Of a DNA stretch of 64,000 nucleotides, positions 17,378 through 49,162 are shown in pieces; positions within the stretch are counted from its first letter, which is position 1; every line of letters starts with the position of its first letter. The notes beneath the pieces are model-generated. The model was not told the origin of the DNA and did not search any database. It saw only the letters and a list, made by a program, of their open reading frames with translations. Position numbers and translations under genes: made by a program. The DNA is taken from assembly GCA_951406725.2 (NCBI GenBank), contig OX597831.1, positions 13,206,001 to 13,270,000 of the forward strand. Reading direction: 5' to 3'. Source of the DNA: Octopus vulgaris. Lineage: Eukaryota.

Positions 17378-18021
17378 TATGTTAAAAGACACTTACCCAG
17401 ACGGTTATATAGTGAGGTGTAATATAGAACCATATCGTTTCGTGACATCTAATAAACCCAAATCTACCACCCTAGCCTAAAATCAACACATAACGACCAT
17501 TTACTAGTTTCACATGCTATCACTTCCCAGTGATCTTTGTGACGTCACTGTAACCAGCTTCCGGTTGGTTACAGACAGAATGGCATAATGTTAGATATCA
17601 TCGCATCATCACTTCTATGACCAACTGGTGGTTTCCACATCTTACAAGCTTGGTAAGCTGTTCTATCACATTAAATGGAACTTTGATGGTGTAGTCCTGC
17701 GATATACGATCGAGAATTAATTAACTAAACAGACAATTCCATTAGTCACTCTGTAGAATTGAAATGTCTTTGTTCTGCATTGCACTTGCAAAACGAAAAC
17801 AGAACAATTCTATAATATGAGTCATAGAATTGTCTGAATTTACATAGAATTGCCATACTTGCTCATGTACATACATCCAAACATGCATATATACATACAG
17901 GCATAAACTCTCTCTCTCTCTCTCTCTATTTCAGACACCACCCCACACATATAACTATATTTATAGACATAATGATATATGGGTGGTTGTTTGTGTGTGA
18001 ATATATATATATATATATATA

Positions 18022-18228
18022 AAGTTAATCCAAACATGAAAACACAAAGAGAAAACAATAACGCTAGAACGAGGAGCAAGTATAGTGTTATTGGACGCTC
18101 GGGAAAGGAAAGAAAGAAGGAGGATTTAATGTTTCGAGCAGAGCTCTTCGTCAGAAACATAGGAAAAAGAAAGATCCAACGAAGGGAAAACGGAGAAAGA
18201 AAATCGCCAACGATGCACACGCGGTCAC
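18022..18228 (-). mobile_element. ~200-bp hammerhead-bearing element
   Basis: HHR at 18125-18157: ttt-CTGACGA-A-GAGC-tct-GCTC-GAAA-CA-TT^aaa; closely similar to 37129-37305. Confidence 0.75.
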
Positions 18229-18311
18229 ATATATATGTATGTGTGTGTACGAATGTATGGGTGAATGTATATACATATATATATGTATATGTTTATATAT
18301 ATATATATACG

Positions 18312-18351
<40 letters not shown>

Positions 18352-18418
18352 CTATGTATATGCTTATAGGTATATATATATGTATATGTTTATATATATA
18401 TATGTATGTATATGTATG

Positions 18419-18457
<39 letters not shown>

Positions 18458-18502
18458 CATAAAACATAACCTCCAAAACAACATGATGTTTATCATTAAT
18501 AG

Positions 18503-20220
18503 TCAGAGAAGAGCTGAAGTGTTCTCATTTGCAAAACAACACAAAGTTACTGGCTCTACTGTTGGCCCTCTGATTGATGAAAATGGTACTCTTCAAGACA
18601 ATGCCAAAACCATGGGAGTGATATTGCAGAAACAATACTGCCCTGTTTTCAGCAATCCTGATATGGCTGATCTGGGCTGTATCACTGATGTTACTCCCCA
18701 ATACACTTTATCGGACATAACCTTTGGCGCTCCTGATGTCTTAGCAGCAATAAAGGAAATGAAGCATAATTCAGCAGTAGGTCCCGATAGGTTCCCTGCT
18801 TGTGTCTTGAAGATGTGTCAACACCAACTTGCACCCCATCTAGCCAATCTGTGGCGGAACTCACTGGATGCTGGATATATACCAGAAAACCTTCTATCCC
18901 AGTCTGTTGTCCCAGTTTTCAAAAAAGGAAACAAATCCCTTGTCGTGAATTACCGTCCAATCTCACTCACCTCTCATATCATTAAGGTATTTGAGAGAGT
19001 GGTGAGATCGCGTATGACTCACTTCCTTGAGAGTCATAATATGCTGAACTCCAACCAGCATGGATTCCGTAATGGAAGGGATTGCCTGACACAGCTACTA
19101 CATCACTTCGATGACATTTTGAGAGCCTTGGGAGAGGGTTCCAACACTGATGTTATCTACCTTGATTTCAGCAAGGCCTTTGACAGGGTTGATCATAAGA
19201 TCGTTTTGAGAAAGCTGTCCAATATTGGTGTCACTGGAAAGCTACTGCAGTGGATCAAGTGCTTCCTGTCTAACAGAACCCAACATGTTGTCGTCGAAAG
19301 AGTCAAATCCAGCCCAGCCAAAGTCAGTAGTGGTGTCCCACAAGGCACTGTGTTGGGCCCACTTCTCTTCATCATCTACATTAATGACATCACTGACATC
19401 ATCAAACACAGTAACATCAGAATCTTCGCTGATGCTTCCAAGCTCCAGAAGGTCATCAATGGCGTGGATGACCGAATAAGCCTTCAGTCAGACCTACTGG
19501 CTGTTGTCCAATGGGCGGAAAAGAACAACATGTTGCTAAACGAAGACAAATTCGAATTGATCCACTTTGGAAGGGAGGACGCTCTGAAACTCCCATACTC
19601 CCTTCCTTCTAGTGAAACTCTCATGGCGTCTAACAACATCAGAGACTTGGGAGTATCTGTGGACAACAACATAAGCTGGGCTACACATATAAGCAGCAAA
19701 GTTGACATGGCCCGCAGAATGTGTTCCTGGATTCTCAGAACCTTCCAGTCGAGAGATTCCCACACCATTATCCTTCTCTTCTCCACTTTTGCCCGAACTC
19801 ACCTGGTTGATGTGGAAAATATTCCATCAGCACTGTCCAAATGATGTTGGTATCACCTTCAAAATACATCCAAGACTTGGACCCCGTGCCATCCGTCCAC
19901 AACAAAAATCTAAATCGCATCTCATAACAACATTGCGGCACAATTATTTCACCTCATTAGACCCGCCCTCTTCAACATTACACCAAGACACGTCAAAACA
20001 GAAACTGACCACACAAAATTTCAAGAAGATTTTGGACAAATTCCTTCAAACAGTCCCGGACAAACCACCCACACCCGGATATGTCTCCGCAAACAATAAT
20101 TCTCTGCTCGAATGGGTCTTGGTGCCCAAATCCTGAATTGAAAGACTTCACCAGGTGGTGCTATTAAGTTAGACATGGCCTGGGCCAATACTGGCCAAAA
20201 CCTTTCTAAGTTATTCTAAG

Positions 20221-44324: not shown

Positions 44325-44417
44325 TTCCTAAAATTTTCGGTGCGTCTTGCAACCTTTTCAGTAGTCTTGACTCAAGACTATTGAAAAGGTTGCAAGATGC
44401 AACGAAAATTTTAAGAA
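44325..44417. repeat. 93-bp near-perfect palindrome made of two divergent degenerate hammerheads
   Basis: Centre at 44371; 46-bp arms with about 4 mismatches. Confidence 0.85.
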
Positions 44418-47714: not shown

Positions 47715-48462
47715 TGCGCATATGTATGTTTTAAATCAGCCACACCCACCTCAACTACTGACAAAGAAACAGTAGAGTCACTTCTCGACTGTATGAATGA
47801 GTTTTTCTTGTCCCAACTTTTTCTTCCCTCCAAAAATATTAGAACATTTTAGCCCTTGTATTTAGTATTCACACCAACACAATACACAGTATTTCAGTGG
47901 CAAAAAACTCTACTTTCAGACCACGACGTGGTTCTCTGTAACCTGAGATTCTGCCAGCCGAAAGTTAACGCTAGTGTCCTCTTTGAAGCTCATCGAATTG
48001 ACACCATGGATCTCTAAGAAACCGACTGGGACGCAATCATAAATGACCTATCACATGTTGACTGGTCTTTCACACATGCACACACCTTCTCCAGCTTCAA
48101 AATATTTTGGCAGATCTTTGAAGACACTGTCAGAAACATATGTGCTAAACACACCCCACTAACTAAGTGCAGAATTCACCAAAACAGAAAAACGGTTATC
48201 AGAACAAACAAACAAAATAACAAACTAAAATACTGCCAACAGCCACACATAAATTCGACGGCTATCACTTTGCTTGAATCAAAGGAATATAATCTCCAAC
48301 AATGCTTGTAGGCCATCATCAAAAACCCAAAAAACAGCCGAGAAGAAATGGACCGTGCAGAAAAATTAAACTCGACCCCAAAGTGTTCTTCTGTTTTGCA
48401 AATAAACACAAGATCACTGTCTCAAATGTTGGCCCGCTAATTGATGAAAATCTCCAAGATGA
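47715..48462 (+). mobile_element. Decayed CR1-like LINE ORF2 fragment (end of APE domain and linker), same family as the 18.5 kb LINE
   Basis: LLSDHDVV motif; [28 protein letters not shown] matches [29 protein letters not shown]. Confidence 0.8.
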
Positions 48463-48729
48463 TACATTATTTACATTATTTACATTCGGCGATATTTGTC
48501 CTCATCTTGTTTGTTGTTAACACAACGTTTCGGTTGATATACCCCCCAGCCTTCATCAGGTGTCTTAGGGAAATTTCGAACCTGGGTTCTCATACCTAAT
48601 GTATTTTTCGTTGTTATTATTATTATTATTATAATTATTATTATTATTATTATTCATGTCACTGCCTGGAGTCGAACTCGGATTCTTGGGGTTAGTAGCC
48701 TGCGCTCTTAACCACTACGCCATATGCCC
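48463..48729 (-). mobile_element. tRNA-headed SINE-like element containing a hammerhead ribozyme
   Basis: A-box TGGCGTAGTGG, B-box GTTCGACTCC, (TAA)n spacer, HHR, (AATGTAAAT)n tail. Confidence 0.78.
48519..48564 (-). ncRNA. Minimal type I hammerhead ribozyme
   Basis: gacac-CTGATGA-A-GGCTG..CAACC-GAAA-CG-TT^gtgtt. Confidence 0.78.
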
Positions 48730-48774
48730 GTGGATTAAATAGTATGTGCCTTGTTAAGGAATATATCCTTTTGT

Positions 48775-48978
48775 TCTCTATATTTGTTTCACTCATCTGA
48801 CTACGGCCATGCTGGGGCACCGCCTTTAGTCGAATAAATTATTTTTTGTAAGCTTAGTACTTATTCTAACGGTTACTTTTGCCGAGTCGCTACGTTACAG
48901 GGACGTAACCACACCAACATCGGTTGTCAACCCATGGTGGGGGGACAAACACAGACTCACAAATACATACATACATAC

Positions 48979-49024
<46 letters not shown>

Positions 49025-49162
49025 AGCTTCTTTCAGTTTCCATTTACCAAATCCACTTACAAGGCTTTGGTCGGCCCGAGAATGCAGGTGTCACGTAGTG
49101 GGACTGAACCCCAAACCCTGTAGTTGAAAAGGAAGCTTCTTACCACACAGCCGCTCCTGCCT
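48775..49162 (-). mobile_element. SINE family B (OK-like)
   Basis: Head, internal (TA)n and tail all present. Confidence 0.85.

Follow-up and report, generated by a model that had tools for sequence, protein, structure and literature searches.

A Penelope-like element of Octopus vulgaris with a tRNA-like, likely Pol III, promoter and abundant SINE-like copies

Parts of the copy in the window

The window, by which we mean the whole 64,000-nucleotide stretch of Octopus vulgaris DNA analysed here (contig OX597831.1, positions 13,206,001 to 13,270,000), carries on its minus strand a short repeat that an earlier note had read as a Pol III-type SINE with its own hammerhead ribozyme. The parts that the note listed, namely a tRNA-like head with Pol III boxes, a spacer, a hammerhead and a 9-bp repeat, each lie where it had placed them. 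They are given below as read from the sequence and, where named, from comparison with other loci.

48463..48733, minus strand: solo pseudo-LTR (short) copy of a Penelope-like element (PLE); sequence and family alignment
48657..48729, minus strand: tRNA-like head, closest to tRNA-Arg among 20 compared tRNA genes of the same genome
48712..48722, minus strand: Pol III A box; aligns with the A box of genomic tRNAs
48668..48677, minus strand: Pol III B box; its distance from the A box is that of a tRNA
48614..48654, minus strand: (AAT)n spacer, variable in length, belonging to the family unit; sequence and other loci
48591..48593, minus strand: predicted start ATG, upstream of the ribozyme; in the family its frame is that of the PLE ORF
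48573..48582, minus strand: second B-box-like word, imperfect, within the N-terminal reading frame
48519..48564, minus strand: minimal type I hammerhead motif (stems I and II, palindromic loopless stem III, GUU site)
48564-48560 / 48523-48519, minus strand: hammerhead stem I
48559-48553, minus strand: hammerhead core, plus one extra A
48551-48547 / 48536-48532, minus strand: hammerhead stem II; one C-A mismatch in the window copy, paired in the family majority
48524/48523, minus strand: predicted hammerhead cut
48463..48518, minus strand: start of the next unit's ORF, 9-bp repeat included; runs on into the reverse transcriptase (RT) ORF in long copies
48486-48463, minus strand: 9-bp repeat

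The window copy begins about 4 nt ahead of the tRNA-like head, ends in the first of two 3'-end clusters of its family and is 5% off the family majority in the ribozyme half. The hammerhead core pattern occurs once in the window, against 0.01 occurrences expected by chance. No target-site duplication of at least 5 nt was found around the window copy, the one copy at which this was tested. The Rfam scan proposed in the note called neither a hammerhead nor a tRNA in the window copy; when five other loci were included, there was again no hammerhead match, and tRNA matches stayed below the cut-off. ARAGORN reported no tRNA in the window copy, its relaxed output being noise, and neither half of the copy folded better than its shuffles (z -0.58 and +1.15).

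The abutment on an older LINE fragment, which the note had also described, is confirmed: a plus-strand LINE piece ends at the 3' end of the PLE copy. This decayed fragment (about 47751-48460, plus strand; endonuclease-to-RT linker) shares 36% identity over 206 aa with a LINE from a stretch sampled at random (L186:701-3200, plus strand) that is well preserved, its ORF encoding endonuclease and RT and being nearly intact, with one frameshift; the fragment does not resume within the next 4.5 kb. Another long open frame in the window (about 17975-19500, plus strand) encodes a LINE RT of the same type as the fragment. Elsewhere, window positions 44333-44409 hold a near-perfect 77-nt inverted-repeat hairpin, a look-alike of a microRNA precursor with a score below the cut-off.

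A high-copy family that belongs to a coding element

The note had proposed searching for the head and hammerhead halves separately across the genome. The ribozyme half lies within 600 nt of the head in 25 of the 29 best head matches (the window's own left out), and of the other four, two have it after longer insertions and two lack it. Among 30 position-ordered heads, those that come first on the largest contig among exact matches, the ribozyme half is downstream in 23 and on an inverted arm in four; the remaining three are one copy interrupted just past the spacer, one attached to an ORF and one possibly lone head. A microsatellite, which is a common insertion target, separates the two halves, as would suit a tRNA-derived SINE that came to lie beside an unrelated hammerhead repeat at the window locus; because head and ribozyme co-occur genome-wide, these counts already refute such chance nesting, to which we assign next to no probability. 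That the copy belongs to one family, as the note had supposed, also holds, and the family is large: in 1.4 Mb of evenly spaced genome stretches, the ribozyme core was covered by 24 segments and the head by 12, which scales to ~48,000 ribozyme segments (31,000-71,000) and ~24,000 heads (12,000-42,000) genome-wide. Contigs from four runs labelled as four organisms cover all parts of the unit and in two of them bridge head and ORF end; contig depths summed across these runs, which are not copy numbers, show no clean step. No head-to-tail array of the short unit was present in the loci fetched, in which copies are single, in inverted pairs or linked to an ORF.

The sequence upstream of some heads is common to several loci and codes for the C-terminus of an endonuclease. 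A search with this C-terminus gave 150 scored matches among 3,864 candidates, of which 30 were fetched. In all 30, the head follows the stop codon, at a distance of 19-50 nt and mostly of ~32 nt, and in 27 of them the ribozyme half comes next within 700 nt. At the other end of the unit, the 9-bp tail and the next 40 nt continue into the 5' end of the PLE ORF; what the note had called a 9-bp tandem tail and a second B-box-like word are both part of the N-terminal reading frame. The repeat unit runs from ORF and stop through 32 nt, the tRNA-Arg-like head, (AAT)n, the ATG and the hammerhead to the beginning of the next ORF. Among 30 ORF-start loci, four (L203, L204, L206 and L214) preserve the tandem of ORF end, head, ribozyme and next ORF start. 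This partial-tandem pseudo-LTR is a hallmark of PLEs. Rather than a free-standing SINE, the 270-nt unit is the pseudo-LTR of an autonomous PLE that is abundant and decayed.

The PLE ORF encodes, in order, an N-terminus, RT, thumb and a GIY-YIG-type endonuclease; the longest copies have 2.55 kb in common, and the element is ~2.6 kb long. The RT domain PF00078 was found in two of six frames scanned (L093 and L094), and the endonuclease motif with two Cys and two His (CCHH) was read directly in natural copies. Pfam support for the endonuclease is weak: the family's own fragments gave no match, a relative (P0008) matched with E 0.23, and PF01541 is annotated in three of the 120 homologues listed. 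These homologues are RT proteins of 500-870 aa, the profile of which weakly matches group II-like RTs and TERT, and include an Anolis protein (P0043) that is 40% identical over 88% of the RT query; no relative was found in viral contigs. In a tree of 50 rows, the family groups with P0001-P0011. Because this tree holds no named Neptune, Nematis or Naiad references, our Penelope/Poseidon label rests on domain order, which, together with the lack of an extra Zn-finger ahead of the endonuclease, fits that clade as described in the available part of PMC8557442. Barnacle proteins occur in the sister cluster of P0010. Every long copy examined is broken, and these copies are 83-91% alike; the family therefore appears inactive. 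In-frame TGA stops in the endonuclease region (nine among 30 translated copies) raised a selenocysteine reading, which we rejected because the TGAs fall at two positions where most copies have Arg, a pattern that fits CpG decay.

From the upstream ATG, the reading frame is open through the ribozyme. An in-frame length of 159 nt is common to four of 11 copies, the other seven having private indels, and the ribozyme-spanning frame matches the N-terminus of P0008 (45% over 139 aa). The same reading frame is kept through the hammerhead, with similar residues, in P0008, P0125 and P0139, which suggests that a ribozyme-spanning N-terminus is conserved in their clade. Some PLEs have a spliceosomal intron near the start. 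In the octopus family, a GT-AG intron candidate of 38-47 nt follows the ribozyme; none of the RNA-read joints listed skips it, and the unspliced frame across it is open.

Copy ends also follow PLE habits. An inverted copy lies just upstream of the head in 21 of the 30 position-ordered heads and in 13 of the 29 best head matches. The 3' ends are bimodal in each of the four copy sets (143 segments), with clusters at +43..+72 and +87..+102 as counted from the cut site; the two clusters are ~35 nt apart, which fits the optional 30-40 nt 3' tail of PLEs. The note had suspected that PLE rather than LINE machinery moved the copies, and the pseudo-LTR, the two 3'-end clusters and the inverted 5' copies, all PLE hallmarks, bear this out. 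In L194, L198 and L219, the 5' pseudo-LTR starts within the (AAT)n spacer, in line with insertion into AAT/ATT tracts.

The ribozyme fits the minimal type I hammerhead of PLEs, with the conserved core, an extra nucleotide before stem II, a G-C first pair and the palindromic 15.2-16.2 positions (features as given in the part of PMC4209133 available), so that the note's assignment to the minimal PLE type with loopless stem III is upheld. Of 204 distinct decayed segments, 73 retain an exact core; all of these have the GUU, with U at position 17, and stems I and II are mostly fully paired. The note had also called for a check of covariation in these stems. Across nine family copies and 11 other PLE ribozymes, 86.9% of cells are paired, against 17-48% in slid controls, and two-sided changes occur in nine of the ten stem pairs; this covariation is between families, and the 11 other ribozymes were picked by their core pattern. 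Not one of 34 ribozyme-half segments sampled at random has its beginning or end within 3 nt of the predicted cut, and thus inserted copies come from uncleaved RNA. Folding of monomer and dimer with ViennaRNA recovered no dimeric hammerhead; the minimum structure has stems I and II in one family copy, not in the window copy. The ribozyme was probably weak as a monomer and unneeded for insertion.

The independent SINE family that the note had inferred is not supported, since the unit is the PLE pseudo-LTR and no sequence split separates short from ORF-attached copies. Over the ribozyme half, to which the test was confined with the head left out, the majority base agrees at all positions tested between 33 ORF-attached and 40 head-start copies, part of the latter having been picked because they resemble the window copy. 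Divergence is 6.0% in the ORF-attached and 5.0% in the head-start copies, and among 11 variable positions tested, one reached a nominal p=0.016, in the 9-bp repeat. As in tRNA-derived SINEs, a tRNA-related head with A and B boxes forms the 5' end; a distinct non-autonomous lineage that shares just its 3' end with a partner is not seen, the whole unit including the head being present in the PLE. We also weighed the note's view in a form in which the PLE pseudo-LTR gave rise to a true SINE family, made up of the short copies, with Pol III masters of its own and mobilised in trans by the PLE protein. Head-start short copies are ~4- to 5-fold commoner than ORF-attached ones, both boxes are present, an internal terminator is absent in the copies read, and non-autonomous PLE derivatives are known (PMC8557442 and bioRxiv 10.64898/2026.07.22.740005, each in the part available). 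The lack of diagnostic variants and an age equal to that of the ORF-attached copies speak against such a family, as would the fact that the short copies end at presumed priming sites, without the ORF stretch that, by analogy with an anole PLE, the template should need. We consider a true SINE family distinctly improbable.

The tRNA-like head and the proposed start of transcription

The note's reading of the head as tRNA-like with Pol III A and B boxes stands, the boxes being aligned to those of genomic tRNAs. Compared with 20 genomic tRNA genes, the head of copy L229 is identical at 49 of 73 positions to Arg-TCG and Arg-TCT and at 35-46 positions to other isotypes; because the comparison covered 20 tRNAs of six isotypes, the tRNA-Arg assignment is tentative. 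In copy L222, the Rfam tRNA score of the head is 20 bits, the cut-off being 29. Downstream of 59 related metagenomic PLE ORFs (RT 37-47% identical; ~45 with at least 400 nt of downstream DNA; the DNA of P0001-P0010 lay outside the comparison), the search gave no pair of A and B boxes.

Exact 21-mer counts are 727 at the ORF 3' end, 806 in the UTR just upstream of the head, 4006 in the head, 6304 in the ribozyme and 88 at the ORF start past the tail, with a profile that is flat over ~110 nt and then jumps within ~40 nt at the head. Because the exact-match rates of UTR, head and ribozyme motifs are alike (6, 8 and 5 of 30), the copy step at the head is ~4-fold after correction. Among the 30 position-ordered heads, 21 have their 5' end at about -8..+3, three extend upstream and six start inside, five apparent upstream extensions having been judged by eye to be fold-back look-alikes; in a random sample of 12 heads, five start at the head, two extend upstream and five start inside. 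Because most copies that keep the head start at it, the head likely served as a Pol III start site. Trimming by RNase P is a less likely source of the pile-up of 5' ends, since many copies keep up to seven native bases before tRNA +1.

Long copies were searched for T4 terminators. On the sense strand of 21 long copies there are 13 T4 sites, each in one or two copies, and none is present in half or more of the copies that cover it, compared with 29 A4 sites so shared. Copy L093 has no T4 where codon shuffles give 3.26 (P=0.02). Because the P values of single-copy tests spread from 0.035 to 0.78, the T4 deficit is suggestive only. In the 59 related PLE ORFs, T4 is not depleted overall (497 vs 471), and one of the 59, L312, a relative without the tRNA-like segment, also has zero T4. 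In RNA-seq (one study, three runs, ~6% of each run covered), both strands are about equally represented, the signal mirrors dispersed copies, and this fragmented RNA shows no pile of read starts or ends at the head or cut site. Read depth over the ORF 3' end is about that over the head and does not mirror the genomic step, with the caveat that the reference head is diverged and a few expressed loci may dominate.

Our working hypothesis, which we consider probable, is that this PLE starts transcription by Pol III at the tRNA-Arg-like promoter in its pseudo-LTR and that internal priming followed by copy-back yields the SINE-like copies. Transcripts would start at most ~7 nt before the head, likely by Pol III, and would read through the ribozyme into the ORF, where no shared T4 terminator lies. 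By analogy with the anole PLE, reverse transcription would then be primed by the PLE protein at two sites that lie within the early part of the ORF, and copying back to the RNA 5' end would give the 270-nt copies. The short palindrome at the RNA 5' end could fold back and prime an inverted second arm, whereas read-through of the whole unit into the second pseudo-LTR would give the rarer ORF-bearing copies. The short copies would probably be dead ends that miss the downstream binding stretch. The head itself probably descends from a SINE of tRNA-Arg origin, or from a tRNA copy tailed by (AAT)n, which inserted into a master element's 3' UTR and was retained there.

The 5' pile-up and the T4 deficit are indirect signs of Pol III use of the head, which is likely. 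Several points weigh against it: the RNA-seq is without strand bias or end pile, the Rfam tRNA score of the head stays under the cut-off, 5' ends could be concentrated by the palindrome where the head begins, and an uncapped Pol III RNA needs an unexplained route to translation. Pol III is also considered too poorly processive for autonomous elements (PMC10886601, part available). The bolder version, in which a captured tRNA-Arg promoter makes a 2.6-kb terminator-free Pol III mRNA that is translated cap-free through the hammerhead and gave rise to tens of thousands of SINE-like copies, we put forward only as a tentative possibility that is more doubtful than probable.

Alternatively, the head could be a passenger left by an old SINE insertion, with transcription by Pol II, as in Drosophila Penelope, and a 5' pile-up that stems from a Pol II start or from fold-back at the palindrome. 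The palindrome lies exactly at the pile-up, translation is then explained without extra assumptions, Penelope of Drosophila virilis has an internal TATA-less promoter in its pseudo-LTR (PMC2377424), and inverted 5' copies are general in PLEs (PMC8557442; both sources in the parts available). Yet the pile-up coincides with the position expected of a tRNA-type promoter, the palindrome stem has only 4-5 bp, a structural stall would be expected 3' of a tRNA-like fold and not 5' of it, and the T4 deficit is left unexplained. We regard a passenger head as rather unlikely and prefer a Pol III start at the head.

Comparison with known elements

Published systems are cited here from the parts of their texts that were available. 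Like the octopus PLE, Penelope/Poseidon PLEs such as PAc of Anolis carolinensis and Penelope have a single ORF with RT plus a GIY-YIG-type endonuclease at the C-terminus, a partial-tandem pseudo-LTR, a hammerhead that overlaps the start of the ORF, 3' ends at two places 30-40 nt from each other, inverted 5' copies and uncleaved RNA as template. In PAc, internal priming in vitro occurs 111-118 nt into the ORF, the first 172 nt of the ORF are needed on the template, cleavage needs protein and is dispensable for insertion, the ORF starts inside the ribozyme and the endonuclease prefers ATT (PMC11167929), while Penelope of D. virilis has the same pseudo-LTR arrangement as the octopus PLE (PMC2377424). 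Unlike these elements as described, the octopus PLE has a tRNA-Arg-like segment with A and B boxes that marks its main 5' end, its unit is without shared T4 runs, and a spliced intron was not seen among the RNA-read joints listed.

Other repeats share single traits with the octopus unit. Sm-alpha and Sj-alpha of Schistosoma likewise have a Pol III-type promoter followed by a type I hammerhead but are non-coding and often tandem, whereas the octopus layout is part of a coding element with short copies that are single or head-to-head (PMC6765202). The TRIMp3 elements Cassandra, Helenus and Ajax also carry a small-RNA-derived Pol III promoter in a terminal repeat, for which a SINE insertion has been suggested as source; they are non-autonomous LTR elements of <1.3 kb, their autonomous partners being argued to require Pol II, whereas the octopus PLE is autonomous and ~2.6 kb long (PMC10886601). 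Non-LTR retrozymes are short type I hammerhead repeats related to, and derived from, PLE pseudo-LTRs, as is the octopus unit; in contrast to it, they form head-to-tail arrays that give circular RNAs, no such array of the short unit being present in the loci examined, and the tRNA-like head of the octopus unit is not among the features described for them in the available parts of PMC7229834 and bioRxiv 10.64898/2026.07.22.740005.

A PLE with a tRNA-like, likely Pol III, promoter that sheds SINE-like copies is likely new. We found no PLE with a tRNA-derived pseudo-LTR in the open-access papers searched; the short form may be named in Repbase or Dfam, and in the available portions of their main texts, two surveys of octopus repeats name Penelope and SINE classes but not this structure (PMC13282606; PMC8967140). 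A Pol III start would be unusual for a self-sufficient retrotransposon. In the prevailing view, autonomous retrotransposons use Pol II, and Pol III promoters mark their non-coding parasites; if true, a PLE RNA that starts at a tRNA-type promoter blurs that line, offers a testable long Pol III mRNA and shows a route from PLEs to ribozyme SINEs like Sm-alpha. The proposed mechanism would tie SINE-like hammerhead repeats (Sm-alpha, retrozymes) to PLE pseudo-LTRs in concrete terms. The ~24,000 heads and ~48,000 ribozyme segments would mark the starts and stops of PLE reverse transcription in vivo, and the copy ends match the internal-priming model, until now shown in vitro for one element.

Repeat libraries would file such PLE pieces as SINEs. 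Octopus tRNA-derived SINEs were reportedly described by Ohshima and Okada in 1994 as families OK, OR1 and OR2, with a tRNA-Arg origin for OR1 and OR2; they are tRNA-related repeats likewise, and the short form of the PLE may be one already catalogued. Directly upstream of the window copy, window positions 48755-49160 (minus strand) hold another high-copy repeat, unlike the PLE unit; it too has a tRNA-like head, near 49160, is represented by at least five further partial copies in the window and could be the commoner octopus SINE class.
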